Positions 108-61,146 of a stretch of 64,000 nt of DNA are shown here, piece after piece. The notes under the pieces were generated by a model, which was given only the letters and a program-made list of their open reading frames with translations, did not search any database and had not been told where the DNA came from. Both the position numbers and the translations under genes were made by a program. Each line of letters opens with the position of its first letter. The stretch's first letter is position 1. The DNA is from a virus, in the IMG/VR virus record IMGVR_UViG_3300050120_000126, positions 2,407 to 66,406 of that record; one strand, given 5' to 3'.

Positions 108-902
108 ATGACTCAAACGATTGAAGAATTACGGCAAGACATCTCATCTAAGCAAGCAGAGCTTTCGGCCGCACTCGCCAAGTTGGATGCATCGGTAACT
201 GACGAGAATTTCGTACCGGTACCGGAAATGCAGTTTGAACTCGAAGACGGCACGATCCATACCGAGCCGGCATTCCTCATTGGCGCGTATCTGAACAGCA
301 AAGGCGACGCCGGCCAGATTGTGATCGATCCGAAGCGCATGCCATGGACCGGCATCAATTATTACGAGGCCGATGAAATTTGTGAAGCCAATGGCTTGCC
401 GCAAGTCACTGAAACGCAATGGCTCGCGATGGCGCTCAACGCATACCACGTCGCTGAAAATTGGACCGGCGGCGCAGTTGGCGAAGGTTCGATGTTCCAG
501 GGCATCCGCAACGGCGGCGGCGCGCGGCCGGGCGAATACGTCCCGACCGATAAAACCGAACAGCGCTGGTTGCGGCTGTCGAACGGCTCCCGGATCTGCG
601 ATATCAACGGCAACGTCCTTCAATGGGTGAAAGACAACCTGCACGGTGACAAAAAAGGATTGATCGCCAAGAAGATCACATTGGCCTCGCCATCGATCGC
701 ACTGGCGCCGCATCCATCGCTGACTAAGGGCATGGGCTGGCGGCCAAGCCAGGGTGTGGATTGGTCCAGCCGTGCGCTCCTCCGAGGCGGCTACTGGGGC
801 TCGGGCGACTATGCCGGCGCCTTCCGTCTCGGCGTCTGGAATCCCGTCACCCGCGGCGACAGTCTCGGCTTCCGCAGCACCAAGCCTAGCTCGGGTCTCT
901 GA
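108..902 (+). CDS. DGR target protein 1 (CLec/FGE-sulfatase-like fold, C-terminal VR)
   Basis: CLec-type motifs (PWTGINYYEA..C, TETQW, DINGNVLQWV, RGGYW...GFR); 3' end matches the TR with A-specific changes; AAGGAG RBS upstream. Confidence 0.9.
   Translation: MTQTIEELRQDISSKQAELSAALAKLDASVTDENFVPVPEMQFELEDGTIHTEPAFLIGAYLNSKGDAGQIVIDPKRMPWTGINYYEADEICEANGLPQVTETQWLAMALNAYHVAENWTGGAVGEGSMFQGIRNGGGARPGEYVPTDKTEQRWLRLSNGSRICDINGNVLQWVKDNLHGDKKGLIAKKITLASPSIALAPHPSLTKGMGWRPSQGVDWSSRALLRGGYWGSGDYAGAFRLGVWNPVTRGDSLGFRSTKPSSGL
764..877 (+). repeat. DGR variable repeat VR1
   Basis: 114-bp ungapped match to TR; 19 mismatches at TR adenines plus 2 synonymous non-A mismatches. Confidence 0.93.
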
Positions 903-913
903 TCCCTGGCTTC

Positions 914-937
914 GGGCGGCTGCGCAAGCAGTTGCCC
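914..937 (+). promoter_or_regulatory. Post-VR1 hairpin (DGR target-recognition element)
   Basis: GGGCGGCTGC-GCAA-GCAGTTGCCC stem-loop downstream of VR1; related hairpins follow VR2 and VR3. Confidence 0.7.
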
Positions 938-40100: not shown

Positions 40101-41559
40101 TAGGAAAGGCTTCGCAGATAGTCGGCATACCGAGACTCCAAACCGCTTTCTTCGGAGATTTTGCGGAGCATTCTTGCCTGGTTATCCGTGCCGCCAACAA
40201 ACTGCCGTGCCAGTCTAAGCGTTTCGCTTTCAACGTATTCTGTCGGCCCCTCTTGTAGTGGGAGGGGTGGGGAAGCCAGTTCCAGCGCAATGTCGATTGC
40301 CTTACCAGCTAGAGAGCCAAGAAGGTTGAACATGGCATCAGGTCCGCCAATACCGTTGCAACCCCTGATGTCATCCAACGCCTTATTCAGATGGCCATCG
40401 ATGCATACGCGGTTGCGAGCCTCTCTGGCGATGCCAGTTGGTTGCGGATATTTTGCTTGCAGTGCCGCAGCCCATTGTTTCATGTCTTGATCGCTCACAA
40501 TTGCTCTCCTGTCGGCGCAACCATTTCAACGGCGTCATTAATATGGTCTGCCTTAATGGTGGATGGGGTGGCAGCAGCAAGCAACACTGCGCGCGCTTTC
40601 GTCATCAGGTTGAACACGTTCTCGCCAACATTATTTTCAAAGTATGCGAAAACAAGTTTGTTCAGCATTTCGCCGGTATCCGCCTTACTGGTAGCCTGCA
40701 ATAATTCGATGGCTTCCAAAATTGGGTCAGCGCCGCCGTCATCAGGATCGAGGCCAAGCGCTTCGTTAATCAGACCAATATCAGAGCATGCAGCCTGAAA
40801 CATGCGTGTCATGCTAGCAAGTTCTTCTGTCGCCTTACTGGCTGTAGGGGTGGCGGCAAGCAAGGCGCGGGCTTCCCAGCCTATAAATTGATGCGAACCT
40901 GCCAACGGGTCATAGAAACGTAAAAATCCTTGATCGTCGCGATATGCAACTTTTGCTTCCTGCGCCCACTTTGTGAACGATGCACGCTCATCCGTCAGCG
41001 GTTCTACTGTCGCTTGTGGCGATACCTGACTGGCAAGATAAAATGGTGTTGTTTGCCCCATGAATTCGCGAGTGTTCCAACGTTTTTCAAGCCTAGGGTT
41101 ATCTACTGCACTCAAATCTATATAGCCGAATGGTTTTTGTGAAGCATGACCAAGAATTGTCGAATCAAGATCACGTTGCAGATTTATACGCGCAAGGCGC
41201 TCATGCTCTGCTGCCTCCTGCCATGTAGCAAAGCCATTCGGTCCTTTAATTGCTTCACGCAAGCGATATAACTCGGCCCAATTTTCAGCATCCATTGGCT
41301 TGTCTGTGACCGCTACCAATGGCGCAGAAGAAGCAAGTTGTTCGGTGGTTGCAAGCCAAACATCGTCACGCCGAATCTGTTCGCCATTGATGGTGTCTGT
41401 GTATAAGACCGGCATCGGCGCGATCGAGAGGACTTCGTGCCACGGCTTGTAACTGAGCGTCATCTCAGTTCTTTTGACTGGCGCGGCAGCCGAGGCAAAC
41501 GGGACGTATGGCCTGGCATCATCTTCGCTGGTTTCCAGCGGGATATCATTTGTATTCAT
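37101..41559 (-). other. Cluster of small, coupled leftward hypothetical genes (e.g. 37328-37759, 37717-37971, 38150-38613, 38950-39279, 39279-39521, 39518-40498, 40495-41559)
   Basis: Overlapping start/stop ORFs typical of lambdoid ea/exo-xis accessory regions; mosaic Ala-rich linkers. Confidence 0.55.
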
Positions 41560-41927
41560 GCTGCCTCTTTAAAGGTAAGTGAATTAGCCGCAGCGTCATG
41601 GCGTGCGACAAGGGATCGAGAAGTGACAACCGGCATGTCGAGGCTCTTGGCCAAGCGGATTTCAACCTTGGCGCCGCGCGATCGGGAACAGCCTGGCAAG
41701 GTTGCTACAAAGTCGCAGGTAACGAGCTTGGCAATGTCCTTGCGCATCGCTGCATGCCAACTCTTGGCGCCGCCCATGTTGATTTCAGCTGGGCTGATGA
41801 CGATGTACCCGAGAGCGCGCAGCCGCGCAGCTTCGGCATGGAACGCGGGAAAGTTGAGTTTGGGCAGTCCGGTCATGGGGCCGGCCAAGTAACACTTCAG
41901 GCGCTTTCTTTTACTATTGGCGATCAT
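41556..41927 (-). CDS. DUF4406/nucleoside 2-deoxyribosyltransferase-like protein
   Basis: YLAGPMTG...NFPAF, SPAE, CD...LPG...S.GA..E motifs. Confidence 0.8.
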   Translation of the reverse strand: MIANSKRKRLKCYLAGPMTGLPKLNFPAFHAEAARLRALGYIVISPAEINMGGAKSWHAAMRKDIAKLVTCDFVATLPGCSRSRGAKVEIRLAKSLDMPVVTSRSLVARHDAAANSLTFKEAA

Positions 41928-42873: not shown

Positions 42874-44883
42874 TCATGCCGCCCTCACAATCTCGCGCTC
42901 ATGCGCGAAATTTGCCTGGATCAGCGCGCGCGCCATCGGCGGGCATACTGAATTCCCGCACATACGAACTTGGGCGCTTTTGGTGAGGGTCAGCCCTTGC
43001 TCTGGCTTGTCGCCGATGATGTAGGTATCTGGGAAGCCTTGCGCCCGGTACAGTTCGCGCGGCGCCAGCATGCGCAGGCCGATATCCACTATCTGATAAT
43101 CTTGGCCGTGAATGGTCACCAAACCGAACCGGTCCTTGCTGGTCACGGTCCTTAACGGATCAGTGAGGTTATCCGCTTCCTTTTCATTCCCGTAGTAGCT
43201 AAGCAGGAATGCGCGCACCTCGGCGTGATGAAGACCGCCCGCGCTAATCGTGCCCAGAGGTTCGTCTGTTGCAGCCGCATTGCTCGTACCGCGCAACTTA
43301 ATCAGATTGCTGGTGACCAACGCTGACTTACCACCGCCCCCGGCCGTAACCGTACCAAGTGGTGCGTCAGCGGCATGGCCGACGCTCTGAGTCATGTCAC
43401 GCTGGATGTGCGCTGTTACGATTCCGAGCGCGTGCGGCGCGCCGGCGGGATTTTCTTTCGGGCCGGCCGTGATGGTCGGCAGTGGGCTGGCCATGTCGCT
43501 GCCGGTCGCGCCGGTACGGAATTTGGTAATGTGCGCAGAGACCATGCTGAAATGGCCACCCTTGACCTGGGCGCAGATCGTGCGCAGCGGTTCATCGACC
43601 GGCATATTCCGTTGATTGCTGGCATTGGCATGTTCAGTCAGGAACGCGGTAACTACGGCGCCATCGGCTTTCGAGGTAATCGTCGCCAATGGTTCATCTG
43701 CGCCACGCGGGCGACTCTGGCCAGCGCGGCCGCCGACGCCAGCGAGCAGCGCAGAAACCAGCGCATGCCTGTTTTCGGTCGGAATGGTATTGATCGGCTC
43801 GTCCGGATTTTGGCCCCGGACATCCGAAGCCCGTTTGTCGCTGTAGTACGGGCTGATATAAGCCGTCGCGATTGCTTTCTCGCCGCGATTGGCGCCCGTT
43901 ATCGTGCGGAACGGCTCGTCGATCGATTCGGACCGATCACCGCCTTGGTGGGTGACCGGCACTATCGATGGCAGCACTATCGCACGGTGATTCTCGGCGG
44001 TCAGCGTGCCGAACGGTTGCGTCGTCGGTACCGGCTTGCCGGAATAGATCGGACCTCCTTGACCGATAATGAACGGATTGGCCGCTATGACGACATACCG
44101 CATGATTCCCTTGGCGATGCGTCGGAGCGTAGCCGGCGCCAATGGCCGGGAGCGTTCAAATATGGATGGACAGGGGATAGACCAGTCGATACATTCGGCG
44201 GCAGTGCGATAAGGCAGCAACTTACCGGCTTTGACACCAATGCTGTCCGGCGCACCATGCGTCGGCGCCGGGAAGGTAATCGCAATCCCGTCACGCCGCG
44301 CGACGAGGAAGAATCGCTTCCGGATGGTAGGGGTGTCATAGTCGCAGCCGCGCATCTCGCGATAATCGACTTCATAGCCGTGGTCGCGCAGTTGACGCAC
44401 GAAACTTTCGAACGTCTTGCCCTTTTTTGCAGGATCTGGCTTCGCGTTCCCATCGGCATCAATGAGTAGTGGCCCCCAAGTTTTGAACTCTTCGACGTTT
44501 TCGAGCATGATGACGCGCGGCTTGCACTTTGCAGCCCAGCGTAGCGTTACCCACGCGAGGCCACGAATCTTCTTCTCTACAGGCTTACCGCCCTTAGCCT
44601 TACTGAAATGCTTGCAATCTGGCGACAGCCAGACAAGGCCGACCGGCTGATTGCCCGTGACTTTGATCGGGTCAACATCCCAGACAGACTCGCAAAGATG
44701 CTTCGTATGCGGATGGTTAGCGGCATGCATGGCCAGTGCTTCCGGATCATGATTGATCGCGATATCGACCGGACGGCCGAATGCCCATTCCAGCCCAGTG
44801 CTGGTGCCGCCACCGCCGGCGAAGTTGTCTATGATTAATTCATTGCCCAGGTCAAGCGGCAAACTCATCAGATCGCGCTTCAT
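42874..44883 (-). CDS. C5 cytosine DNA methyltransferase
   Basis: DNFAGGGG (I), SPDC (IV), ENV (VI), TIRKRFF (VIII), RELYRAQGFP (IX), GNSVCP (X). Confidence 0.93.
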   Translation of the reverse strand: MKRDLMSLPLDLGNELIIDNFAGGGGTSTGLEWAFGRPVDIAINHDPEALAMHAANHPHTKHLCESVWDVDPIKVTGNQPVGLVWLSPDCKHFSKAKGGKPVEKKIRGLAWVTLRWAAKCKPRVIMLENVEEFKTWGPLLIDADGNAKPDPAKKGKTFESFVRQLRDHGYEVDYREMRGCDYDTPTIRKRFFLVARRDGIAITFPAPTHGAPDSIGVKAGKLLPYRTAAECIDWSIPCPSIFERSRPLAPATLRRIAKGIMRYVVIAANPFIIGQGGPIYSGKPVPTTQPFGTLTAENHRAIVLPSIVPVTHQGGDRSESIDEPFRTITGANRGEKAIATAYISPYYSDKRASDVRGQNPDEPINTIPTENRHALVSALLAGVGGRAGQSRPRGADEPLATITSKADGAVVTAFLTEHANASNQRNMPVDEPLRTICAQVKGGHFSMVSAHITKFRTGATGSDMASPLPTITAGPKENPAGAPHALGIVTAHIQRDMTQSVGHAADAPLGTVTAGGGGKSALVTSNLIKLRGTSNAAATDEPLGTISAGGLHHAEVRAFLLSYYGNEKEADNLTDPLRTVTSKDRFGLVTIHGQDYQIVDIGLRMLAPRELYRAQGFPDTYIIGDKPEQGLTLTKSAQVRMCGNSVCPPMARALIQANFAHEREIVRAA

Positions 44884-45572
44884 CAGATATCGTCCAGCGT
44901 TTCAACGGCGCCAGGCAGCGGGAACCACGTCGGCAAGGCGTCGAAACTCTCGCGCAACTTCATAATTCCGCCGAAGCATTCCAGTTCGCCGATGCCGCCG
45001 AGAACGAATGTCAGCGGGCTATCGGCATCGCGGGTGAAAAACCTGATGGATTCGCCGAAGTTCTTGCCGATCGATAAGGCATCATTTAAATAGCGCGGAT
45101 TCACGGCGCCGGAAATTCCTTCCTTGTAGCCGATGGTGCTGGCGACGCGCTCGATGCGCGGGAAGACGCCTTCGATCAATGAATTGCCAGGCTGAATAAA
45201 CAAAGGCTCGGCAACCGGGCCGGAAATCATTGCGTTGCCATTCGACATCACGTCCAGCGTGTGCTTGGCGTTGGCAGAATGTTTCAGCGCATCCTTGCTG
45301 ATCGCGACGATAATTTCCTTTTCCACGAAACCGTGCGGATCGCGGACCACGATGTAACGATGACCATTGGTGGCAACGATCATTGCGGAATCGTCATCAA
45401 GCGGCCGGATGTTGATGCCGCACAGGTAATACCGGATATCCTGCTGAGCCATAAACGGATATACCAATTTCATTGCGACGGCATTGATGCGAGCGATCAG
45501 ATGCGCGCCATCAGTCGATTCGACTTCTGTTCCTTCGATTGCAGATTGTTCCGGCTTGGTATTGGCGTTCAT
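44883..45572 (-). CDS. Truncated beta-sliding-clamp-like protein
   Basis: DIRYYLCGI, VATNGHR, IEGVFP..ERV, NPRYLNDAL match DnaN domain motifs. Confidence 0.75.
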   Translation of the reverse strand: MNANTKPEQSAIEGTEVESTDGAHLIARINAVAMKLVYPFMAQQDIRYYLCGINIRPLDDDSAMIVATNGHRYIVVRDPHGFVEKEIIVAISKDALKHSANAKHTLDVMSNGNAMISGPVAEPLFIQPGNSLIEGVFPRIERVASTIGYKEGISGAVNPRYLNDALSIGKNFGESIRFFTRDADSPLTFVLGGIGELECFGGIMKLRESFDALPTWFPLPGAVETLDDI

Positions 45573-46867
45573 TGGATGCCTTTATAGATGGTTGATCCGG
45601 TGTGTGAAAACATGGCTTGATACGAAGCGAGGGATTCAGTGTTGTCGTAACCTCGCTGTTCGTGCTGGCGCAGGCGATAGTGGAAGCGGCCGCGCACATA
45701 GGCACCGGCCGAGATGTGGTTCGGCCAAACTGTGTAACCGAGGAATGGCACGCCGGCAGCCGTCGGCGCCAGGCGGATCTTGAAAGGGTGAATCGTCAGG
45801 CCCATGGCTGCGAGGTATTCAACGATCAGATCCTGCAGCGCCAGCAGCTCGGCGCGGGAGGATGCGAAAATGGAAATGTCATCGACGTAGCGCAGATAGA
45901 AGCGCACCAGCAAGACTTCCTTGACCCAGTGATCGAAGGCATTCAGGAAAATGTTTGCGAACAGTTGTGACGGCAGGTTCCCGATTGGCATGCCCTTGGC
46001 CAAGGTCGTGCGATACATGCTATCCGCCGCGAATAGGTCATCGAATGAACTATCAGTCTGAAATGAATCGATAAGGTCGATGATCAGGCGCCGAACGTCG
46101 TTGTCGCCGATATGGCGCAGCACAGCTTGTTTTAAAAGCGCATGATTGACCGAATAGAAGTATTTCGAGATGTCGAGTTGCAATACCCATTTCGCTTCCG
46201 GCGACCGGGCGAACTGGGCCATGCGCTGGACTGCCGCATGCGTGCCACGGCCGGGCAGGTTGCCGTAGGTGTCATGAATGAAACGCTTCTGCCAGATCGG
46301 CAGCATGTACCGATACAGCAGCCAATGCACGATCCGGTCTTTCGTCGGCGCGCAGACCACCAGGCGATGTTTTTTTTCGCGGACGATGAATGTCTTGTAA
46401 GGGCCAAATGCGTACTGCCGGGCGCGCAGCCGGTTTTGTATCGTAACCAGGTGACGCAGCGGGTCCGCACCGAAGCGCAGCACGCGCAGGTTATTGGACT
46501 TGTTTTTACGCGCCTTGCCCCAGCACTGAAACAGGTTAGGCAGGCTTGTCAGGCGGTAGAACTCAGAATTAGTGCCGCATCCCGCCGCAGCACACGTGCA
46601 CACCGCGGCGGTTTCCGGTTTGGCGCAAGGCCGTGCTTTCGGGAGCGAGCCCCCAGGAGATTTTCGACCAAGAATGAATAGCTCTTTGTGAGCAAGCTCA
46701 CAATCTGAACGTGATATTTTTGGGTCTGCGGAAGCCGATATTGTCGTTCCGGTTGTCGGGATTCCAGTTGTTGAGATTGAAAGCGCCGGCATTGTCGTCC
46801 GAGTTCCAGTAGCCGCCTCGGATGAGCGCATTGCTGGACTTTTTAGAAAATCCCCCTTGGTACTCAT
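45569..46867 (-). CDS. DGR reverse transcriptase
   Basis: KDRIVH, LDISKYFYSVNH, KGMPIGNLPSQ (DGR-type SQ), LRYVDD, FLGY. Confidence 0.96.
   Translation of the reverse strand: MSTKGDFLKSPAMRSSEAATGTRTTMPALSISTTGIPTTGTTISASADPKISRSDCELAHKELFILGRKSPGGSLPKARPCAKPETAAVCTCAAAGCGTNSEFYRLTSLPNLFQCWGKARKNKSNNLRVLRFGADPLRHLVTIQNRLRARQYAFGPYKTFIVREKKHRLVVCAPTKDRIVHWLLYRYMLPIWQKRFIHDTYGNLPGRGTHAAVQRMAQFARSPEAKWVLQLDISKYFYSVNHALLKQAVLRHIGDNDVRRLIIDLIDSFQTDSSFDDLFAADSMYRTTLAKGMPIGNLPSQLFANIFLNAFDHWVKEVLLVRFYLRYVDDISIFASSRAELLALQDLIVEYLAAMGLTIHPFKIRLAPTAAGVPFLGYTVWPNHISAGAYVRGRFHYRLRQHEQRGYDNTESLASYQAMFSHTGSTIYKGIQ
46686..46703 (-). other. Hairpin in the DGR RNA spacer 3' of TR
   Basis: Perfect inverted repeat TTGTGAGC-TT-GCTCACAA. 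Confidence 0.5.
46726..46839 (-). repeat. DGR template repeat (TR)
   Basis: In the target frame it reads SSNALIRGGYWNSDDNAGAFNLNNWNPDNRNDNIGFR; 10 AAY codons, 30 adenines; parent of three VRs. Confidence 0.96.
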
Positions 46868-47736
46868 GCTGGCTCCGCAGTCAGGGTTGGACTTACGGTA
46901 GCCTTGAGCGCGCGAATCACGCCGCCCAATAAATTTCCGATTTCAACCGCCAACGAAACGCGATGCTCGAAGGCGATCTTCAGTTTCTTTAATGTCGGTA
47001 CCAGGCTCAGATAGTGTTTTAGCTGATCGACATCGGCCGACAGGCTGTTGAGCAACGCCTGTTTGTTGTCTTCCAGGCCATACGCGAAAATATGGTGCAT
47101 TAGGCTGTACATCACGGTCCGGACGTTCTCGCCCCAGATAGCGCGGGCGTCGCGTGGCAACCGCATCAGATCCAGTGTCAGTTGCTTATCGAGTTCTTCG
47201 GCCTTGGCCTTCAAAACAAATTCGGATGTGTTTGTTGACCGTAAAATCTTGTTTTCGCCGGCCCGGTTCAGTTTTTTGAACTGGCGCAGCTCATTGATTA
47301 TTTTTCCGACGATATCGTCCGGAACCGAAGATAAGAGCGAGTCTTTCACGTCGCCTTGGGGCGATACGTAGACGTTCCGATCCGTTTCATGTGTGCCGAG
47401 CGAAACAACGTAGGGCGTGTTGTAGTCGTTGATCATCGACCAGAGGCGGCGTTTGTAACCGGCCAATGGAAAACCGACCACGATATGCGGATTATTTGCC
47501 GGGCCCTTCAATTGCATCTTGTAATGCTTGAGATTGTGCAGGACGTGCGCGGTCCGGTTATAACCTTGCAACCACCCGCCCGACTGAACAAAGATTAAAT
47601 GCATGGGATATTTCTCTTCAAGTTTTGCCGCGATTTCCGCGACCTTATCGGCTTGCCCTAGGCCGACGTCGATACCTTTAAAAGAAGTGATGCCGAACTT
47701 GGCCGCTTCCTCGGGTGTTGGGAGTTCGATTTGCAT
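46864..47736 (-). CDS. DGR accessory protein: MutS-domain-I-like N-terminus fused to Avd-like four-helix bundle
   Basis: N-term LIFVQSGGWLQGY..TA....VGFP; C-term LPRDAR..WGE....EIGNLLGGVIR; between target and TR. Confidence 0.75.
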   Translation of the reverse strand: MQIELPTPEEAAKFGITSFKGIDVGLGQADKVAEIAAKLEEKYPMHLIFVQSGGWLQGYNRTAHVLHNLKHYKMQLKGPANNPHIVVGFPLAGYKRRLWSMINDYNTPYVVSLGTHETDRNVYVSPQGDVKDSLLSSVPDDIVGKIINELRQFKKLNRAGENKILRSTNTSEFVLKAKAEELDKQLTLDLMRLPRDARAIWGENVRTVMYSLMHHIFAYGLEDNKQALLNSLSADVDQLKHYLSLVPTLKKLKIAFEHRVSLAVEIGNLLGGVIRALKATVSPTLTAEPA

Positions 47737-47763
47737 ATCGCCTACTTTTTATTGTTATTAAGA

Positions 47764-47790
47764 ACGGACCGCCGCTTCGCAGCGACCCGT
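47764..47790 (-). promoter_or_regulatory. Post-VR2 hairpin
   Basis: ACGGGTCGCTGC-GAA-GCGGCGGTCCGT on minus strand. Confidence 0.7.
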
Positions 47791-47815
47791 GACCAGAAAC
47801 CAGAAGCCTGAATTT

Positions 47816-48748
47816 TTACTTGGTGCTGCGGAAGCCGATACCGTCGTGCCGGCCGTCGGGATACCAGAGGTAGAGACGGAAAGCGCCGGCATAGTCGCCC
47901 GAGCCCCAGCAGCCGCCCCGGACGAGCGCACGGCCGGACCAATCTGAACCAGCATCCGGATACCATCCGACACCTTTGGTATAAGACGGCGCCGGCGCGC
48001 TGGTGATGGATGGTGAAGCGGCGGCGAATGCCGATTTGACGATGCCGCTTTCATCGCCTTGGATATCGTCACGAACCCACGAATACGCGTTGCCCGCAAA
48101 GTGATATATGCGATCGCCAGTTGACAGGACCAGCCAGGTACGTTCATCTGCATCTTCGGGCTCGTACGTGCCGGATTGCGCTTCGTCGACGTTATCTTTA
48201 CGAACGCCCTGGTACATCTTGCCTTCGCCGACTACGCCGGAAATCCAGTTCGCTGCCTGCTCGGATAAATCCAGCGCCACGGATAGCCATTGCGATTCTG
48301 TAATCAGGTTGTAGCCAGCCGATTTACATGCGGCGATAGATTCGGCGTAGTTGATATCGACCCATGGCGTACCGTCAGCGGTCGACTGCACGGTGCCGGC
48401 GACGCTACGCGACGATGGGTATTGCGCGATCTTGAACGACGGGACAAAGAGGCCATTTGACAGCGTGCGATCCGGCACCGTAATGAAAAGGCTGTTCTTT
48501 TGCACGTCGTCGGCCAGGATGGCGCGCAGCTCGGCGGCAAGCACCGGCTGAGTGATAGCGCAGGAATCGGCATATGCGGCGATAGCGGGCATCGCATGCT
48601 GGTCGGTCGTGATGTTCAGTGGGAAATACTGATCGTTTTCGTGTTTTCCGCCTGGCGCGCTGCTGCCGTCGGTACGCGTGACGGTGAATTTCTTAAATAA
48701 GCCAACATCGGCTTGGTCGAGCGGTTTTGCTTCGGTGACTGCATTCAT
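47816..48748 (-). CDS. DGR target protein 2 (cassette-proximal, CLec/FGE fold)
   Basis: PWVDINYAES..C, ITESQW, GNAYSWV, RGGCW...GFR; GGAGG RBS; VR at 3' end. Confidence 0.92.
   Translation of the reverse strand: MNAVTEAKPLDQADVGLFKKFTVTRTDGSSAPGGKHENDQYFPLNITTDQHAMPAIAAYADSCAITQPVLAAELRAILADDVQKNSLFITVPDRTLSNGLFVPSFKIAQYPSSRSVAGTVQSTADGTPWVDINYAESIAACKSAGYNLITESQWLSVALDLSEQAANWISGVVGEGKMYQGVRKDNVDEAQSGTYEPEDADERTWLVLSTGDRIYHFAGNAYSWVRDDIQGDESGIVKSAFAAASPSITSAPAPSYTKGVGWYPDAGSDWSGRALVRGGCWGSGDYAGAFRLYLWYPDGRHDGIGFRSTK
47826..47939 (-). repeat. DGR variable repeat VR2
   Basis: 114-bp match to TR; 21 mismatches, all at TR adenines. Confidence 0.96.
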
Positions 48749-48839
48749 TGCTATCCCTCCTGTGGTTTTAAAAGGTGCTGCGTTATTTGTCCCGGTAGTC
48801 CGCTATCGCAGACAGTGCAGACCGGGGGCTGCGGGAGAT

Positions 48840-49109
48840 TTATTCAATCTTTTCGTACGGGTATTTCTGCTGGTGTGGCTTGATAAAATCTTTAAAGTAG
48901 CCGCCTGGTGATTTCGCTCCTTTGAAATTAGCGAAGTCCTCGGCAGTGAAATTCGCATAGTGATAAAGGCTCCCATTCGGAGCGACCTTGCTAGGTTTAA
49001 AGCGAACTGCAAGCGTGTTGGTTGCAGCGTCATGACCAAGAGAATCAATCTGCGACGAAACAACAGAATCCATAGCAATGACCGGGCGTGGAGCGATTTC
49101 GATATCCAT
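48840..49109 (-). CDS. KTSC-domain protein
   Basis: VVSSQI.SLGHD..TNTLAVRF, Y.Y, A.SPG.YF..FIK. Confidence 0.8.
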   Translation of the reverse strand: MDIEIAPRPVIAMDSVVSSQIDSLGHDAATNTLAVRFKPSKVAPNGSLYHYANFTAEDFANFKGAKSPGGYFKDFIKPHQQKYPYEKIE

Positions 49110-49122
49110 TAAAATTTCCTTC

Positions 49123-49599
49123 CTAGAACGGAATGTCGTCATCCATATCGCTGAAATTCGGCGCTGGACGCGATGCTGGTTGTTGACGTTGCTGATTGTT
49201 ATTGCCAGGGTTCTGACGTGCAGGTTGACCTTGCGGCCTGTTATCATTGTCATCAGCAGATTCCGGGCGACCGCCAAGCATCTTCATCACGTCGGCGATA
49301 ATTTCCGTGGTATATTTTTCAATGTCGTCTTTGTCTGTCCATTTGCGCGTCTGCAAACGGCCTTCGACGTAGACTTGCGAACCTTTTTTTAGATACTGGC
49401 CGGCGATTTCAGCCAGCTTTCGGTAGAAAGTGACACGATGCCATTCGGTCAATTCTTTCTTTTCGCCGGAATTTTTATCTTTCCAACTTTCGGTTGTCGC
49501 GATCGCACAATTGGTCACGGCATCGCCGTTGGGCATATAACGCGTTTCAGGGTCACGCCCCAGATTGCCGACAATGATTACTTTATTAACTGAAGCCAA
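49123..49599 (-). CDS. ssb: Single-stranded DNA-binding protein
   Basis: [21 protein letters not shown]-terminal DDDIPF. Confidence 0.97.
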
Positions 49600-49614
49600 T
49601 TTGTTCTCCGTCGA

Positions 49615-50340
49615 TTAGTTGTAGCGGTGTTCGATCTTGATTTGTGCCACGGTGTTGAGCAGGTATTCCCGCGCTACGCGGCACTTGGCGATCATCTTTT
49701 CTTCCAGTTCTTGGTCTCGCTGATATGTAATGCTCGTTAGACGTAAGGCTGGGTCGATGTGGGAAACTTCGTGCAACTCGCGTTGCTCGTAGCGGATTAA
49801 GTCATCTGGAGTGTCCAGCATCACAAAGCAGACTTCGTGTTCTGGAACGTCCCAGAGGCGCATGTAGGCGCGTCCCTGCCATTCATAGAGAGAGTCGTGG
49901 CAGTCTTCGCTCAACGCTGGAAAAGTATCTAAATCCCATGCGCATTTCGTATCTATGGTCTTAATGCCAGGCACATAGATATCGCATTCACCGGTCAAGA
50001 ACTCGTCTTCGCGGCGTTCGGTGTTCTTGGTGTAATTTTTGAAGCGAAGGGAATTAATCGTATCGATTGCCTCGTCCTCGCAAGCAAGCCCCTTGTCCAT
50101 ATATTTGGTTTCAACGACTTTGTTGTAGCCATAGACAAATTGTTTTGCGAGTTTCCCGAGAAATGTCTTTGCGCCGGCAGACAGGGACATTTCCTTATAC
50201 GGTGCGAGCAGCAACTTATCTGCGTCGGTCTTTCGCGCCTTATTTAAAATGTCTTGCAGTTCGAGCGGCACCAATTTCTTATCGATCGACTGTGCATCAG
50301 TCATGATTAGGCCAAGCGTGGAGGGATGAAATTTAAGCAT
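49615..50340 (-). CDS. YqaJ/lambda-exonuclease-like recombination nuclease
   Basis: KG..CE..AI, TGECDI, DTKC.W, YEWQ..AYM.L; between erf and ssb. Confidence 0.75.
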   Translation of the reverse strand: MLKFHPSTLGLIMTDAQSIDKKLVPLELQDILNKARKTDADKLLLAPYKEMSLSAGAKTFLGKLAKQFVYGYNKVVETKYMDKGLACEDEAIDTINSLRFKNYTKNTERREDEFLTGECDIYVPGIKTIDTKCAWDLDTFPALSEDCHDSLYEWQGRAYMRLWDVPEHEVCFVMLDTPDDLIRYEQRELHEVSHIDPALRLTSITYQRDQELEEKMIAKCRVAREYLLNTVAQIKIEHRYN

Positions 50341-51073
50341 TTTTCACCTCGTCATTTACCTGGGTAAGTTGGTCTTCAGTCAGGATGTATTCGGCTTTCA
50401 GGCGAGCGACGGTGAACTCTCCTTTTTTAATCGCTTCGATGGCACTGGCCAGGCCATTGGCGCCGATTTTCATTGGCGTTTTTATTCCGCCTACCGGGGC
50501 TTTGCCATCTGGCGCGCCGCCGCGGCCATCGTCATCTGGCGTGTCCGATGTAGCCAGCCCGCATGCGCCGAGCAAGGTGTAGCGCTGTAAATAGGTTACG
50601 GTGGAGGCGATCTGCTGGATGGCATTTTTCTTGCCAGAATTGTCAGGCGGTGCTTTCATCGTAGTGCGTTTAGAATGGCCCATCAGATGAGTAATGATGC
50701 AGGTCACTTCGATCATTCCGCTGTCCGGCTGAACGGTATCCCAATCGTGGCTAAAGCCATGTTCAGCGAGCGACGAAATAACGACTTCGCATATGCCGCC
50801 TAATGTGGCATGACTGTAGGAAGTGCCAGTGAATGTCACGTTTTTATCCTTCAGGATCGTAGGCGCATTCTTTTTGAATTCCGCCATGGCAACGACGAAC
50901 GCTTTGCGCGCCTCGTTCGCATCGAAGCGATCCTTCAAATCCATGAATTTTTCGATTTGGGCCATGTCTGCGCCACGCTCTACCGCCATACGCAACAAGT
51001 CGGCAGGTGTTGTTCCGGTGACAGCCACAGCGGTGCTGCGAGGGTGATCCATTTCTACAATATTTGATTCCAT
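50333..51073 (-). CDS. ERF-family single-strand annealing protein
   Basis: Q.IASTVTYLQRYTL..ACGL...DDDG signature. Confidence 0.88.
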   Translation of the reverse strand: MESNIVEMDHPRSTAVAVTGTTPADLLRMAVERGADMAQIEKFMDLKDRFDANEARKAFVVAMAEFKKNAPTILKDKNVTFTGTSYSHATLGGICEVVISSLAEHGFSHDWDTVQPDSGMIEVTCIITHLMGHSKRTTMKAPPDNSGKKNAIQQIASTVTYLQRYTLLGACGLATSDTPDDDGRGGAPDGKAPVGGIKTPMKIGANGLASAIEAIKKGEFTVARLKAEYILTEDQLTQVNDEVKNA

Positions 51074-51081
51074 GATTGGCC

Positions 51082-52293
51082 TTAATAAGTAATTGAGACG
51101 TGAGGAACCTTGCCGGCGCGAATCAGTTGAATGATTTCCGGAATAAGGTCGCTATCGACGCCGGCGCCATCGAGCGCTTCGGCGATTTCTTCATGGATGT
51201 TCAGACGGTGCGTTTCATCGGCCTTGCGGACGCGTTCGGCTTCGTCCGCAGCATCCTGAACACGCTTGGCGGCCGCGATACGATCAGCTTCGATTTTCTC
51301 TGCGCGGGCCAATTCCTCTTGCTCTGCATTGATGGCATCAATGCGCTGTTGTTCAGCAACGGCAGCAACGCGGTTTCGCTCGTCTATTTCATCCTGCTGA
51401 CGTTGCAACTCGGCGCGCTGTGTTGCCAGAGCTTCATCATCTTGCCGGCGCTTTTCTGCGGCTTCGGCATCAGCGATACGGCGCGCTTCGGCGGCGATAT
51501 TGTCAGCGGCCAGGCGTTCGGCTGCCGCTTTGCGTTCTGCGGCTTCGATCCGATCGGCATGCTCGGCACGTTCTTTAGCGAGAGCAGCGCGCTCGGCAAT
51601 CAAACGGTCATTCTCGATGGCCTGTTCGGCTGCAATGCGCTCACGCTCCGCAATGGCAGCTGCGGCCGCGCGTTCGGTCTCCTGAGTAGCGTGATACATC
51701 TTGGTGACTGCATCCATCGTTTCGCCGATGGCTTTAGTAGCATCCGGCACAAATTCCTCGTACAGTTCTTCGCTCATGGGCATGGCGTCGATTTCATCGA
51801 TCAGATCGAACAACTCCGTAGACGGCTTGCCGGCGGCGGTAATAGCCAAATTGCGGATTTGCTGGATACGCTCTTTAATGGCGTCGGTGCGCGCACGCTC
51901 GGCGGCGATCTTCGCTTCCTTCTCGGCTTGCTTACGGGTATCCTCTGCCTTAATAGCGGCATCAAATTTGAGTTCGTATTCCTTGGCCTTGGCTTGAATC
52001 TCTTTTGATTTGGAATCGATCAGTTGGCCAACTTCAAGAATTGGGGCTTTGCATTCAACCCGGGCGCTCTCTGCAGCAAGCCGCAGATCGTCGCGGAACA
52101 ATGCACGTTGTTTGACGGCGATTGCATAACCGGCTGTATTGCTGCAGTCGATCACGATCTTGTCGGCTGCCGCGATCGCATTTGCCAACTTGACGTTCAG
52201 TGGCGTGTAAATGACTGCGACGTACTTTTCTGGCTCCATCGTGACGAGTGCTGTGCTGGCGACTTCTGCTGGCTTTTCCATTACTTCGTTCAT
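51082..52293 (-). CDS. Long coiled-coil protein
   Basis: E/A/R-rich heptads; C-terminal GKVPHVSITY; upstream of recombination genes. Confidence 0.7.
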   Translation of the reverse strand: MNEVMEKPAEVASTALVTMEPEKYVAVIYTPLNVKLANAIAAADKIVIDCSNTAGYAIAVKQRALFRDDLRLAAESARVECKAPILEVGQLIDSKSKEIQAKAKEYELKFDAAIKAEDTRKQAEKEAKIAAERARTDAIKERIQQIRNLAITAAGKPSTELFDLIDEIDAMPMSEELYEEFVPDATKAIGETMDAVTKMYHATQETERAAAAAIAERERIAAEQAIENDRLIAERAALAKERAEHADRIEAAERKAAAERLAADNIAAEARRIADAEAAEKRRQDDEALATQRAELQRQQDEIDERNRVAAVAEQQRIDAINAEQEELARAEKIEADRIAAAKRVQDAADEAERVRKADETHRLNIHEEIAEALDGAGVDSDLIPEIIQLIRAGKVPHVSITY

Positions 52294-52555
52294 GTCGATC
52301 CCTCAGTTAAATTCTTTGTTGAAAGCGCGCAGCGCCAGGCGTACGGATGCGGTGAAAGGCTTCCCGCCGCGGCGATGAAAGCCATACAGACGAATGAATA
52401 CGACGATGTTCATACCGAATACCCGTAGTTCGACGGCTGCAATACGGCCGGCGCTTGCGCAGCATCACCACTGAGATAGACGCCGACGAAGATCGTGAAA
52501 ACCGATCCGGACATGAATACGACCAGCGCAGCAGCGACGATTAGAAGAGTGCGTT

Positions 52556-52795
52556 TCATTTTTCACCCTTCAATGGCGCGCGGTTATTCCAACGGCGCAT
52601 TGACTCGTTACCCTCAAGCAGTGGCGTGGTGTGACCACAAACGCACGCAACGCGCAGCCGGGTATCGAAGCCATCCGATCCGAGTTCGATCACGGGTTCG
52701 CCGCCGCACTTCTGGCATGGCGAAAGCTCGATATTTTCTGCCGGTGGAAAGCAGAAATTAAAAAATGCTTTCAGTGCGCGGAGGATGCGACTCAT
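52556..52795 (-). CDS. Lar-like Zn-ribbon (restriction alleviation family) protein
   Basis: LSPCQKCGGE...C.CG...WNNR. Confidence 0.55.
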   Translation of the reverse strand: MSRILRALKAFFNFCFPPAENIELSPCQKCGGEPVIELGSDGFDTRLRVACVCGHTTPLLEGNESMRRWNNRAPLKGEK

Positions 52796-53257
52796 GACAG
52801 CACCATCACGGTTACGCCCAGGGCGCCGGCGTTGTACGCTGCATCCATCAGAGCATCACGATCGCCGATCGCGGAATACGAACTGCTGCCGAACTCAGTT
52901 TTAATTTTTATTAAGTAAGTCATTGCATACCCTTCATTTAATTTGAAGTTGGTGACCGGGATACTTTCAACTTTTACGAATAGGCCGCACCACGGAGGGA
53001 CTGCTCAACCTCAATGCGGAATTCGGGTCCGAATGCTAACTGTCCATATCCAGTCATTCGGTCGCCAACAAGAGAGCCGATTGCCCCGACCTGACTCCAC
53101 GCCTTAACTTGCGTAGATTCTTCATAGCGACTAGGGTGTTGCGTTAATCGACTCTTTTGTTGGCCCCGGTAACTTTCCCGAGTGCCATGCGCACTGTGTC
53201 TTTACGTCGAACTTTCTGCGCCTTCCCGACGTGCCGCTCTTGCAAACTTCTGAGGTA

Positions 53258-53280
53258 AGGCCACTGCTGCGCAGCCGCCT
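53258..53280 (-). promoter_or_regulatory. Post-VR3 hairpin
   Basis: AGGCGGCTGC-GCA-GCAGTGGCCT on minus strand. Confidence 0.65.
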
Positions 53281-53307
53281 GGAACCAGGGTCCAGAGACC
53301 CGAGCTA

Positions 53308-54204
53308 TTACTTGGTGCTGCGGAAGCCGATAAAGTCGTACCGGCCGTCGGGATACCAGCGGTAGAGACAGAAAGCGCCGGCACGGTCGTCCGAGTACCA
53401 GTAGCCGCCCCGGAAGAGCGCACTGCCGGACCAATGCAGCGGGCCGGTATAGATGTAGCCCATGCCTTTTTTCATCGAAGGGAAGGGCGCCAAAGTCAGG
53501 TAAGGTGAGTCGGCAGGAATGGATCCGCTGACGACACCGTTTTCATCGCCATGGATGTCGTCAAACAGGTGTTCGTACAGATGGCCGGACCAGTCGTAAA
53601 TGCGATGACCGTTTGTGAGTTCATGCCAGCGGCGTTCAGCCGGATCGGAAGATTCGTAGTCGTTAGCGACTGGGCCAGATACAGTGCCTTTATGCAGACC
53701 ACGGATCAATTCACCTTCGCCAACTTTTCCGCCGGTCCAGTTCTTGTCGACGCTGGCGATGTTCAGCGAGATAGCGATTGCTTGTGAGCCGCGAGTGATC
53801 TTGCGACCAGCTTTATTGCAAGCCTCAATCGCCTCTTCCTGGCTGATGTTATTTTTAGGCTTTTCGGTCGTTGTGCAGATCGCGTTGCCGTCCGAATCGA
53901 TCGAGCCGAGGTATTGCTCGATATGAAATGCAGGAACGTGGATCGTCTTGTCGCCCCATTTAAAGGACGAGGCCGGAACGGGAATGAAACCGGGTTCAAC
54001 CAGATCAAGATTCAAGGCGCTGGAAAACTTTGGCGAACACTTCAGGATTTCGCCATCGTTGTCGGTATCGATAATGATGAAGTCGCCATTGCGGTCTTCA
54101 AAGCACTCAAGGCCATGGCGCAGTGTTTCTTTGAACAGGCCAGACACCGCCAGCGCGCCGACGTTGACTGCAAAATGATCGATCTTGGTTGCTATGGCTT
54201 TCAT
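53308..54204 (-). CDS. DGR target protein 3 (CLec/FGE fold)
   Basis: Paralogue of targets 1 and 2 (NWTGGKVGEG, ERRW..L.NG.RIYD, RGGYW...GFRSTK). Confidence 0.92.
   Translation of the reverse strand: MKAIATKIDHFAVNVGALAVSGLFKETLRHGLECFEDRNGDFIIIDTDNDGEILKCSPKFSSALNLDLVEPGFIPVPASSFKWGDKTIHVPAFHIEQYLGSIDSDGNAICTTTEKPKNNISQEEAIEACNKAGRKITRGSQAIAISLNIASVDKNWTGGKVGEGELIRGLHKGTVSGPVANDYESSDPAERRWHELTNGHRIYDWSGHLYEHLFDDIHGDENGVVSGSIPADSPYLTLAPFPSMKKGMGYIYTGPLHWSGSALFRGGYWYSDDRAGAFCLYRWYPDGRYDFIGFRSTK
53318..53431 (-). repeat. DGR variable repeat VR3
   Basis: 114-bp match to TR; 18 mismatches, all at TR adenines. Confidence 0.96.
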
Positions 54205-54580
54205 GTCATCCCTTCGGTTATTGTTTCGTTAGAATTCTTGCCGTTCTCTCTCGGCCGTCACGCCCTTCGATTTGCCATGCCATACCTTTTAAGGAACCGC
54301 CCAGCAGTCGTTTTAATCGCCAATTTGCGCAGAGCGTTTGCACGTCATTACGGGGGCGATCCCCGCTCAGCGCCACCGGACCGTTGGCTGAGAAAGACCG
54401 ATTCAAAACATCCGGGTCTGAAATTCTTGCTGGCCTCACAACCAGCTCGGCGGCTTTATACACATCCGGTACAGAGGCTTTGCCCACCCGTCTACAAGAG
54501 CCGCTAAAACTTGCCGGACGCTGAGAACCGGCTTTGCGCTTCTGCTCAGGCCTGAGCATCTGCCAGCGTTTTGTAATTCG

Positions 54581-54829
54581 TTATGCAGTTGCGGATTGGC
54601 GCGCGATGAACTTGGCACTTTCCTTGGCGCCGATGTGCGGCACATATTTGCTACGGCCAGCCTTCGACATGAAATTGACGCGAGTGAAGCCAGGGCCGCG
54701 ACCCTTGCCACGAGATTGATACGCCCCGATTTTTCCCATCGCATCGCTTTGGGCGCTACCAGTCAAACGCATCGCCTCGGCGATTGCGTGCATCATTGCG
54801 ATTGCGCGGCTAAATGGTGTTGGTTTCAT
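54581..54829 (-). CDS. Small basic protein, first gene after PL
   Basis: 82-aa Arg/Lys-rich ORF in the lambda-N position; positional only. Confidence 0.5.
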   Translation of the reverse strand: MKPTPFSRAIAMMHAIAEAMRLTGSAQSDAMGKIGAYQSRGKGRGPGFTRVNFMSKAGRSKYVPHIGAKESAKFIARQSATA

Positions 54830-54867
54830 TTCACTCTCTGTTTGTGTTTGTTTGTTCGATGTAGGGG

Positions 54868-54929
54868 AGTATAAACACTTGTTTAGAATAGTCAACAGGT
54901 GTTTATGAAATAAATCAACAAAAGTGTAA
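54868..54929 (-). promoter_or_regulatory. PL promoter and three OL operators
   Basis: Minus-strand TTGACT-16-TATACT; 16-bp sites ATAAACACTTGTTTAG, GTCAACAGGTGTTTAT, ATCAACAAAAGTGTAA. Confidence 0.8.
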
Positions 54930-55043
54930 ATAATGCGAATTGCCATAGACGACAGGCGCAAAAAAAACCGCCGAAGCGGTGAGGGGAAGCGTAGGATTGC
55001 GAGAAAATTACGGCAGGCGAAAAGCTGCGACAAAAGGCTAGAT

Positions 55044-56072
55044 GTGACACATTACAAAAACAACTTCGATTTTCTTAGGCTTACGGCAGCCACCCTGGTT
55101 TTAATCAGTCATCAGCGGGCTTTAATGGGTGAGACTGACTTCGGGTTGAATGAGCGTTTTTCGCTCGGAGTGCTTGGTGTTTGTATATTTTTTATCGTGA
55201 GCGGCTATCTTGTCACGCAAAGTTGGTTGCGCGATCCGAACGTCTTCCGATTTCTGATAAAGCGTTTTCTGCGTATTTGGCCGGGCTTATTCGTGGTGAC
55301 TTGTATTGCTGCGTTAGTAGTCGGCCCAATTGTTACGGGTCTTGATATTAAGAGCTATTTCTCATCGCTAGAATTGCTAAAATATTTTTCCAGCCTTCGA
55401 CTGACGCACATGGCGTTCTATCTGCCAGATGCATTTGCTCATAATCCGTTTCCGAAGGCGGTAAATGGTTCGTTATGGACGATTCCGCTTGAGGTGCATT
55501 GGTATTTCGTACTTGCGATTGCAGGCATCATAGGGGCGTTGCGCTGGCGTTGGCTGGCTGTCTGCGGTGTTATTGGCGCTGCCATTTACCATTTTGGTAT
55601 CTACAACGGCAAAGCAGATGCGCTTCAAAATCTGACGCTAGAGTATGGGCTATTCTTTCTTGCCGGCGTACTGTTGCAACTGTTTCGAGATTGGTCGGCT
55701 GCTCGACAGAACATTTTGGTCGCTGGATCCTTTATTGTCGGCGCCATCATCTTCTTAGCCGGATGGGACGTTCTAGGTGTATTGGCGGCGCTGCCATGCC
55801 TGGTGATATTTACAGGGGATGCGTCCACACCGGTTCTGAGGCGTTTTGGTCGATTTGGCGACCTCTCCTACGGCGTCTATATCTATGCGTTCCTCGTACA
55901 ACAAATTCTGGTGTGGAAATTTGGAACATCAGGCCCATTCCTTCTTCATTTGCTTGCTACAGCGATCATAACGTTTGGTTGCGCGTGGCTATCATGGCAT
56001 TTAATAGAAAAGAGGGCGCTTTCATTCAAACCGTTCTCAAAAAATCCACAGACTCGGCTCGCTCAAGCGTAG
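55044..56072 (+). CDS. Acyltransferase-3 (OafA/Oac-like O-acetyltransferase)
   Basis: FDFLR..AA..V..SH, FFIVSGYL, KRFLRIWP, NGSLWTIP.E, GDLSYGVYIY, SWHLIEK; GTG start inferred. Confidence 0.92.
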   Translation: MTHYKNNFDFLRLTAATLVLISHQRALMGETDFGLNERFSLGVLGVCIFFIVSGYLVTQSWLRDPNVFRFLIKRFLRIWPGLFVVTCIAALVVGPIVTGLDIKSYFSSLELLKYFSSLRLTHMAFYLPDAFAHNPFPKAVNGSLWTIPLEVHWYFVLAIAGIIGALRWRWLAVCGVIGAAIYHFGIYNGKADALQNLTLEYGLFFLAGVLLQLFRDWSAARQNILVAGSFIVGAIIFLAGWDVLGVLAALPCLVIFTGDASTPVLRRFGRFGDLSYGVYIYAFLVQQILVWKFGTSGPFLLHLLATAIITFGCAWLSWHLIEKRALSFKPFSKNPQTRLAQA

Positions 56073-58809: not shown

Positions 58810-59232
58810 TTACAACTCGTCAGCATCACGTCTAATCCATCGCAAGGCTCCACGCTTAGCAGCGCCACGAGCAAAATCTAATATGTTGGCGCGTCCACGC
58901 TTGTCCGATTGCTGCATCAGGGCTATTACTTCAATTATTTCATCTGCTGTAACAGCATCGAGGCTTCCCGATTCATTCGAGTCAACGATAGTCAAATTCA
59001 ATTCCGCTAACTGGTATTGACTAGGGTCTGTCACGGAAAGGTCAAGAGAAGTTAGCGCAGCCAGGTCGACGCCAAAAAATTTGGCCAACTTCGGCGCAAA
59101 TTTCGAGACTTTCGATTTTCTCTTTTCCAGCATAAAAATGTTTTGGCCGTCTGTTCCGACGGCAGTGCCGACCGCGTCATAAGTCAATGACCGTGCTTCG
59201 CGCAAAAATTTAACGTTCTCTCCGAGTCCCAT
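58810..59232 (-). CDS. CI-like repressor (Xre HTH, no S24 domain)
   Basis: LGENVKFLREARSLT...LAKFFGV HTH; divergent from cro; about 140 aa. Confidence 0.8.
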   Translation of the reverse strand: MGLGENVKFLREARSLTYDAVGTAVGTDGQNIFMLEKRKSKVSKFAPKLAKFFGVDLAALTSLDLSVTDPSQYQLAELNLTIVDSNESGSLDAVTADEIIEVIALMQQSDKRGRANILDFARGAAKRGALRWIRRDADEL

Positions 59233-59243
59233 TCGCGGACTGT

Positions 59244-59305
59244 ATAAACATCTGTGTATTTTGTCCATAAACAGTAGTTGACTTAAATAAACAGGTGTTT
59301 ATAAT
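59244..59305 (+). promoter_or_regulatory. PR promoter and three OR operators
   Basis: TTGACT-16-TATAAT; sites ATAAACATCTGTGTAT, ATAAACAGTAGTTGAC, ATAAACAGGTGTTTAT share the OL consensus. Confidence 0.85.
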
Positions 59306-59312
59306 CGAGGGC

Positions 59313-59576
59313 ATGAACCCTCTTACTAAAGCAATCGACACCTGCGGCGCAGGGCAAGCTGGCTTCGCCAGGCTGATCAATGAATCCCTTGGGCTTTCTG
59401 GCTCGGACGCCATCACGCCACAGCAAGTCTGGAATTGGCTTAATCGAGGCGACGAAATTCCTGCTCAGTATTGCCCGGCAATCGAAAAACTTTGCAGTGG
59501 GAGCGTTTCTCGAAAAGATTTGCGCCCAGAAGACTGGCAAAAGATTTGGCCTGAACTCGCATCTGCAACGACTTAA
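59313..59576 (+). CDS. Cro-like (YdaS-family) regulator
   Basis: QQVWNW, CPAIE, V.R.DLRP.DW..IWPEL. Confidence 0.85.
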   Translation: MNPLTKAIDTCGAGQAGFARLINESLGLSGSDAITPQQVWNWLNRGDEIPAQYCPAIEKLCSGSVSRKDLRPEDWQKIWPELASATT

Positions 59577-60688: not shown

Positions 60689-61146
60689 CTGAGATCGTGC
60701 TTACCAAAGCCGCAAACGGCGTCTTGCTGCCTGCTGACCAGCAGAGCGCTGAATGTATCGCCAAGATGAAACTTGGTGCCGGCATCAAGATGAAATTCAC
60801 GAAACACAACAACGTGAAGTTTCACCGGAAGATGTTCGCGCTTGCCAATTTGGCTTATGAAGCGTGGGAGCCGTTGGAAACGACATATAAAAATGAAATC
60901 GTTGCCAAGAACTTCGATCAATTCCGCGAAGACATCACGATCCTCGCTGGCTTCTATGAAAGTCGTGTACGCCTGAACGGTGAAATCCGCATCATCGCCA
61001 AAAGTTGGGCATTTGAGTCGATGGACGATATCGAGAAGGACAGACTCTACAACTCGATCATTAACGTCGTGCTGTCGCGCATTCTCACAAAGTACACCCG
61101 CGCCGATCTGGATGCTGTTGTTGAATCCGTGCTGAGGTTTGCATGA
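60685..61146 (+). CDS. DUF1367/NinB-like protein
   Basis: N.KFHRKMFAL, FR..ITI.AGFY, KS.AF.SMD. Confidence 0.75.
   Translation: MTEIVLTKAANGVLLPADQQSAECIAKMKLGAGIKMKFTKHNNVKFHRKMFALANLAYEAWEPLETTYKNEIVAKNFDQFREDITILAGFYESRVRLNGEIRIIAKSWAFESMDDIEKDRLYNSIINVVLSRILTKYTRADLDAVVESVLRFA

Follow-up and report, generated by a model that had tools for sequence, protein, structure and literature searches.

Phage diversity-generating retroelements (DGRs) are usually read as receptor-switching devices, and in Bordetella phage BPP-1 the DGR mutates the tail protein Mtd, leading to tropism switching. The locus described here raises the question of what such an element is for when every one of its targets is a small, apparently cytoplasmic protein encoded in an early operon. 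It lies in a window of 64,000 nucleotides, bases 2407-66406 of the 66,406-bp virus record IMGVR_UViG_3300050120_000126 of IMG/VR, and all coordinates given below are those of the window unless a related locus is named. The element comprises a single reverse transcriptase (RT), a single template repeat (TR) and three variable repeats (VR1, VR2 and VR3), carried by the target genes T1, T2 and T3. The reading of these targets as early, non-tail proteins is supported by sequence and synteny, as set out in the following sections, together with the more tentative question of what the proteins might bind.

The template repeat, the variable repeats and the cassette

A repeat search of the window returned one family, made up of four related stretches of 114-126 nt. 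The TR (46726..46839, minus strand) is 114 nt long and contains 30 adenines, with 10 AAY among its in-frame codons. VR1 is located at 764-877 on the plus strand and VR2 and VR3 at 47826-47939 and 53318-53431 on the minus strand, each forming the 3' end of its paralogous target gene and so encoding the C-terminus of a protein folded like a C-type lectin (CLec). One RT/TR cassette with three 114-bp VRs had been described from the letters alone in an earlier note, and its coordinates were reproduced exactly. When aligned to the TR without gaps and in the coding orientation, VR1, VR2 and VR3 show 21, 21 and 18 mismatches respectively, and 58 of these 60 fall on TR adenines (binomial p 2e-31 against an adenine fraction of 0.26); the specificity for adenine thus stands, while the note's count of 56 out of 58 was a small miscount. 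Both of the mismatches at other letters are in VR1, leaving none among the 39 of VR2 and VR3. With 30 adenines the TR could give rise to 4^30 = 1.15e18 DNA variants, in agreement with the order of 10^18 previously given, and to about 3.8e16 proteins; 18 of the 37 in-frame codons are variable and a stop codon is reachable at none of them.

Only these four TR-like copies are present in the whole 66,406-bp genome, where neither a fifth TR or VR copy nor, by tblastn, a further paralogue of T1-T3 was found. As tblastn with T1-T3 yields no extra paralogue, no target is expected among the tail genes; within the structural region at 4-35 kb, fibre genes included, there is neither a VR nor a target paralogue, which bears out the statement that the tail fibres are free of VRs. 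The ends of the record share a 127-bp direct terminal repeat, and the phage genome (66.4 kb) can therefore be taken as complete. While VR2 and VR3 lie 1100 and 6592 nt from the TR, much as the earlier note had put it (1 kb and 6.5 kb), the 46 kb given for VR1 does not hold, since across the junction made by the terminal repeat the distance is about 20.2 kb.

The 3' ends of the VRs and the TR part directly past a common CTTCCGCAG, and all three VR ends are alike, as in the initiation of mutagenic homing (IMH) type. Past each VR, 36-38 nt from the repeat, a GC-rich hairpin begins whose stem measures 9-12 bp: at 914..937 (plus strand, 10-bp stem and 4-nt loop, 37 nt past VR1), at 47764..47790 (minus strand, 12-bp stem and 3-nt loop, 36 nt past VR2) and at 53258..53280 (minus strand, 38 nt past VR3). 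No hairpin was found after the TR, and the folding z-scores of the 100-nt stretches containing the hairpins were not significant.

Within the cassette the order is T2, an accessory protein containing an Avd-like region, the TR and the RT. The RT core (45569..46567, minus strand) matches RVT_1 (E 4e-25) and phrog_1423 (E 8e-96) and contains YVDD as well as IGNLPSQ, which conforms to [I/L]GxxxSQ, a motif that we take to be the signature of DGR-type RTs. Upstream of the core the RT frame is open as far as 46867, crossing the spacer and all of the TR in a frame unlike that of the targets, and there is no ATG between the TR and the RT core. The accessory protein (46864..47736, minus strand, 290 aa) resembles Avd over residues ~170-275, the same residues being matched by Pfam bAvd (E 2e-4), PHROG Avd (E 2e-6) and NCBIfam DivGenRetAVD (E 4e-8). 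With an additional N-terminal domain of ~170 aa it is about twice the length of Avd; judged by eye only, this domain looks like MutS domain I.

To place the element among its relatives, IMG/VR was scanned with the RT, giving 34 loci, of which 33 are at 63-78% identity. A full-length homologue of the accessory protein is found upstream of the RT in 32 of the 34, keeping its place between target and TR, and between one and three targets lie upstream in 30; in locus L006 (7789-9842) the accessory gene is present as a tandem duplicate together with a second, identical TR. The mismatches between templates and variable repeats are again concentrated at adenines, with 787 of 812 in 52 pairs, a set that includes the duplicated template of L006 and one probably misregistered pair (36 mismatches, 15 at A), and 310 of 313 in a second set of 20 pairs. 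Two pairs of loci that are ~95% identical upstream differ from each other in a VR, and these differences fall on TR adenines at 16 of 16 and 15 of 15 positions. Across 76 target homologues the residues encoded by adenine-containing codons have an entropy of 2.35 bits, compared with 0.39 bits for the fixed residues of the VR. A genome scan added ten more copies in Solimicrobium, Duganella, Undibacterium, Pseudoduganella and metagenome-assembled genomes (MAGs) of Burkholderiales, three of the ten being the same prophages as IMG/VR loci; a layout with one to three targets is kept across ~40 related loci, Oxalobacteraceae prophages included. The architecture recurs in IMG/VR; in a set of 50,697 phage records megablast of 44000-56000 found no match and tblastn of T2 matched through the N-terminal module only, in 7 records of 4 phages.

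The target proteins and their N-terminal modules

T1 (108..902, plus strand, 264 aa) carries VR1 and consists of an N-terminus of ~35 aa followed by a domain of the CLec/formylglycine-generating enzyme (FGE) type; its stop codon is displaced, adding five residues. T2 (47816..48748, minus strand, 310 aa), which carries VR2, places module B (residues ~10-86) in front of the CLec/FGE domain, and T3 (53308..54204, minus strand, 298 aa), which carries VR3, has in the equivalent place the beta-rich module C (residues ~10-63). The three share a common core of ~225 residues that is 40-47% identical, consistent with the earlier description of them as paralogues with a CLec/FGE core. AlphaFold2 models were obtained for T2 and T3 with mean predicted local distance difference test (pLDDT) scores of 90.5 and 83.3. 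For the T2 model the top match in the PDB is TaqVP (5vf4, E 6e-8), followed by FGE, EgtB and TvpA, while for residues 67-298 of T3 the top three solved structures are TaqVP (Z 16.7), Mtd (Z 14.4) and TvpA (Z 14.1). All three targets have the predicted CLec/FGE fold of DGR variable proteins. An enzymatic role as an FGE or EgtB was considered and set aside, by inference only, on the grounds that these matches are at the level of the fold (13-19% identity) and that the VR positions correspond to variable residues.

No membrane or signal-like segment is apparent in T1-T3, the maximum hydropathy over 19 residues being 0.83-1.12 in a crude test made with no signal-peptide predictor, and none of the three has a lipobox. 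This simple scan fits the earlier remark that there is no obvious signal peptide.

The N-termini had also been called unrelated, which proves imprecise, since T2 and T3 carry two conserved modules that recur in the family. By reading through the 76 listed target open reading frames (ORFs), ~12 were seen to have the 80-residue module of T2 and ~20 the beta-rich module of T3, and ~30 are a bare lectin domain with 2-31 extra residues. Module B is also found, alone or in other fusions, in small non-structural ORFs of BcepF1 and PBb001, both lytic phages, as well as in other proteins, and in a related provirus (L063, G004 52913-53131) a module of the T2 type opens a 457-aa ORF that has no lectin domain. 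Neither module has a Pfam, NCBIfam or named PHROG function, a feature search of a structure atlas gave no usable match to either, and the matches from a wide structural search with the T3 model all came from the lectin domain. A further type of fusion is seen in the prophage of a Burkholderiaceae MAG (L042 7752-8765, plus strand), in which the cassette-proximal target joins a nucleoside-deoxyribosyltransferase-like DUF4406 domain (E 2e-25) to a variable lectin domain whose VR has all 9 of its 9 mismatches at adenines. In the phage described here DUF4406 occurs as a stand-alone gene (41556-41927).

Operons around the targets

The earlier note placed the targets in the leftward and rightward operons among recombination and methylase genes, and this agrees with the neighbouring genes and with two promoter-like sites that bear operator-like sequences. 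The leftward site, TTGACT-16-TATACT (10/12), lies at 54895-54868 on the minus strand with operator-like palindromes at 54871-54886 and 54891-54906, and the rightward site, TTGACT-16-TATAAT (11/12), lies at 59278-59305 on the plus strand with three such palindromes within 59244..59305. Between them the two regions make up an inverted repeat of 71 nt with 70% complementarity, and five of the six matches to ATAAACA-NN-TGTTTAT in the window are located at the two sites, a total of six matches being reached in none of 100 shuffles. A candidate CI-like helix-turn-helix repressor (58810..59268, minus strand; phrog_4 and phrog_8, with a weak match to HTH_19) and a Cro-like protein of the YdaS family (59295..59576, plus strand; PF15943 E 5e-17, phrog_35) are encoded beside the rightward site. 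It would seem likely that the two regions represent OL/PL and OR/PR within an immunity region of the lambdoid type.

Between 54559 and 37328 the minus strand carries all of the genes. The first gene of the presumed leftward operon encodes a 113-aa basic protein (54218..54559, minus strand) with no family match in the library scans, and it is followed by T3, a weakly Lar-like ORF, a 403-aa ORF, Erf, an exonuclease, the single-stranded DNA-binding protein (SSB), KTSC and T2. Beyond T2 come the Avd fusion, the TR, the RT, a RusA/clamp-like gene, a C5 methylase, a DUF4406/deoxyribosyltransferase-like gene and more ORFs that have no assignment. T3 would thus be the second gene of this operon and T2, together with the DGR, would be transcribed further along it; the SSB, exonuclease and Erf recombination genes (49123..51073, minus strand) lie between T3 and T2, and T2 itself is flanked by the KTSC/SSB genes and the Avd fusion. 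The right arm reads Cro-like, NinB, methyltransferase, HNH-like, DnaD/O-like replication protein, phrog_6028, DUF559 endonuclease-like, a 75-aa ORF and T1, which starts 2 nt past the end of the 75-aa ORF. T1 would accordingly belong to the rightward operon, directly behind the replication genes. The neighbours of the targets thus include Erf, the exonuclease, SSB, the C5 methylase, NinB, the methyltransferase and the DnaD/O-like replication protein.

All structural genes are encoded on the plus strand at ~4-32 kb, among them those for the large terminase, portal, sheath, lytic tail protein, baseplate and fibre; the tail sheath, baseplate and fibre genes are at 16-31 kb. An integrase is encoded at 35806-36909 on the minus strand. 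We consider it probable that the DGR is an intact element of a complete 66.4-kb temperate myophage that has its relatives among Oxalobacteraceae prophages.

Among the 34 IMG/VR loci the recognisable neighbours are SSB (8 loci), KTSC (11), C5 methylase (9), Erf with exonuclease (1), NinB (1) and integrase (2). Ten whole records have 1-3 full targets each. In one of them (G001) the remote target adjoins a repressor, a methyltransferase and a replication protein, and in another (G007) its neighbours on either side are a repressor and a RecE-like exonuclease.

Other genes of the region are noted here for completeness. Directly downstream of T3 is a 79-aa ORF (52556..52795, minus strand) with two cysteine pairs and a WNNR motif, which gives a weak match to the Lar family of restriction alleviation proteins (phrog_599 E 4e-4, TIGR03655 E 1.5e-3). 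An O-acetyltransferase gene (54933-56072, plus strand; phrog_3333, E 5e-35), which has the look of a lysogenic-conversion moron, occupies the other strand in the interval that separates the leftward promoter from the immunity region. A HicB-like antitoxin gene (2998-3417, minus strand; phrog_497, E 3e-41) is found after the T1 region and ahead of the terminase genes, and a small ORF upstream of it on the same strand may be its partner.

Possible roles of the targets and comparison with known systems

Since both operons appear to start at promoters with operators of the CI/Cro region, the targets, the TR RNA and the RT would all be made upon induction or infection, once the repressor no longer acts. 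During genome replication the three VRs would next be overwritten by adenine-mutagenised cDNA, giving every progeny phage new alleles. The nature of the products can be suggested only more weakly. They may be soluble, cytoplasmic binding proteins that are not part of the virion, in which the variable lectin face would bind a variable intracellular ligand while modules B and C would provide a constant function, and the most likely arena would be phage-host or phage-phage conflict, for example the neutralisation or evasion of host defence proteins. Hints of a cytoplasmic location come from the low hydropathy of the targets, the bare lectin domains in the family, the DUF4406 fusion, the presence of module B in non-structural ORFs and the weakly Lar-like ORF. 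It is possible, and proposed here tentatively, that this family of temperate phages has shifted the work of its DGR entirely from adsorption into the cell interior, where a repressor-controlled early operon would supply as many as three hypervariable lectin-fold binders that differ in their constant N-terminal modules and serve together as an adaptive, library-based means of counter-defence or host takeover. Counter-defence in itself seems to us a plausible role, to be entertained with similar caution.

A number of observations weigh against this proposal. The promoters and operators are consensus matches only, and promoter-like sites number 10 compared with a mean of 14.8 in shuffled sequence. 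The Lar matches of the 79-aa ORF and all three Avd matches of the accessory protein are under the curated cut-offs, and the DUF4406 fusion was seen once only, in a MAG. The two non-adenine mismatches of VR1 suggest that this repeat may be rewritten less often. No VR variants were seen in metagenomic contigs, as described below. Finally, when the lectin domain was compared with a library of viral structures, its best full-length matches were the C-termini of long 'tail collar fibre' proteins, and a role in the virion is the norm for the lectin fold.

The last of these points is what would be expected if T1-T3 were associated with the virion as accessory adhesins or receptor-binding proteins, despite being encoded away from the structural module, and were mounted on the fibres or baseplate, so that tropism switching would occur as in BPP-1. 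The resemblance of T3 to Mtd is in keeping with this, and published surveys (the Roux preprint) take unannotated viral targets to be structural. We nevertheless think such a role unlikely. Scans with Pfam and PHROG found no fibre shaft, collar or other structural domain in T1-T3, the sole match to a tail PHROG being at E 1.4e-3 with no single stretch passing alone, and many members of the family are bare lectin domains with N-termini of 2-20 residues. The targets are in repressor-proximal, recombination or replication operons both here and in the two of two further records that were annotated, no TerL or portal was recognised within 10 kb in any of the 34 loci, where the structural genes may be too divergent to match, and the phage has fibre genes of its own without a VR.

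That the DGR is a relic, with VR differences that are historical and targets that are no longer mutated, is a considerably less probable explanation. Variation in the VRs was looked for in the two runs found to contain the stretch, X1, which may be the source sample, and X2, both 2025 peat metagenomes that may belong to one campaign, and only in assembled contigs (Logan), in which rare variants are invisible. A 53-kb contig of X1 spans VR2 and VR3 without differences, and in X2 (depth ~2.5) a 151-nt contig over VR3 also has 0 differences, suggesting that the same VR3 allele persists in the two samples. Apparent other letters at 47849-47910 were rejected as variants, the contig piece concerned also lying on another VR, which indicates cross-mapping. 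X1 also contains a second, lower-depth relative of the RT/TR region (45500-46900), seen as contigs with 59-72 differences, and the assembly graph breaks there. While this uniformity and the two stray mismatches of VR1 would suit a relic, the RT frame is open and encodes YVDD, the TR, the IMH-type ends and the hairpins are likewise intact, VR2 and VR3 differ from the TR at adenines alone, close relatives differ from each other at adenine sites only and contigs cannot reveal rare variants.

Equally improbable, in our view, is that the proteins are neither virion parts nor active in the infected cytoplasm, but are released by lysis or made by the lysogen and bind extracellular or surface ligands, for example in superinfection block or debris binding: glycan binding is common for lectin folds and the O-acetyltransferase moron next to the leftward promoter implies that the region holds lysogenic-conversion cargo, but the hydropathy test gave no export signal in T1-T3, T3 lies behind an operator-bearing promoter and should be off in lysogens, and T1 and T2 are embedded in the replication and recombination operons.

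If the intracellular reading is true, the element would be an intracellular analogue of tropism switching and a viral mirror of the DGR-diversified antigen sensors of bacteria, and, should host defence proteins prove to be their ligands, the targets would serve as natural and evolvable scaffolds for inhibitors. The occurrence of related prophages in cultivable Oxalobacteraceae (Solimicrobium, Duganella, Undibacterium and Pseudoduganella) makes this a tractable system in which to establish the function of non-structural DGR targets.

The element resembles that of BPP-1 in the order of target, Avd, TR and RT, in the adenine-specific pattern and in the position of the VR at the C-terminus of a CLec fold. 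It differs in that the BPP-1 target is a tail-fibre tip protein encoded beside the tail genes, whereas here there are three small targets, none of them in the structural module, and in the extra N-terminal domain of the accessory protein. The hairpins are a further likeness, the hairpin element after the VR having been described before (PMC3240598). The closest structural match, TaqVP of Thermus aquaticus, is likewise a small variable protein of the CLec/FGE type without a fibre context, but it is cellular, not phage-encoded, and not in an early operon. Cellular DGR targets linked to STAND or kinase domains, on the other hand, have large signalling domains that are absent from T1-T3. Multiple and non-adjacent targets within prophages have been described, as have MutS-like (MSL) accessory genes (Wu 2018, PMC5758913), and architecture D of that paper, of which the Legionella DGR is an example, also combines Avd and a MutS-like accessory function in one cassette, the MutS likeness of the present protein being judged by eye. 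There MSL and avd are separate genes, whereas here the two apparently form one 290-aa protein. According to the Roux preprint viral DGR targets are mostly structural. No literature was found on DGRs in Oxalobacteraceae phages or on a phage DGR with only early, non-structural targets, though the supplementary tables of Wu 2018 and Roux et al. may list members.

Non-structural phage DGR targets have been connected with phage-host conflict in print before. Quimbyvirus has a second, non-structural target in a defence-related island (Benler 2021, PMC8008677) and four gut prophages have a distal VR near counter-defence genes (Nature 2025, PMC12629997), and in both papers the authors read the distal targets as part of a phage-host arms race. 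Like these phages, the one described here has a DGR of which a remote CLec target is set apart from the structural genes, and its remote targets likewise have methylases (42874-44883 and 61143-62003) and the weakly Lar-like ORF (52556-52795) nearby. What is unusual is the complete absence of a structural target, since in the published cases a tail target coexists, being cassette-proximal and (predicted) tail-associated in phages of gut Bacteroidota hosts; here, by contrast, the cassette is placed in a recombination module, and it serves three targets with recurrent N-terminal modules in phages of Oxalobacteraceae.

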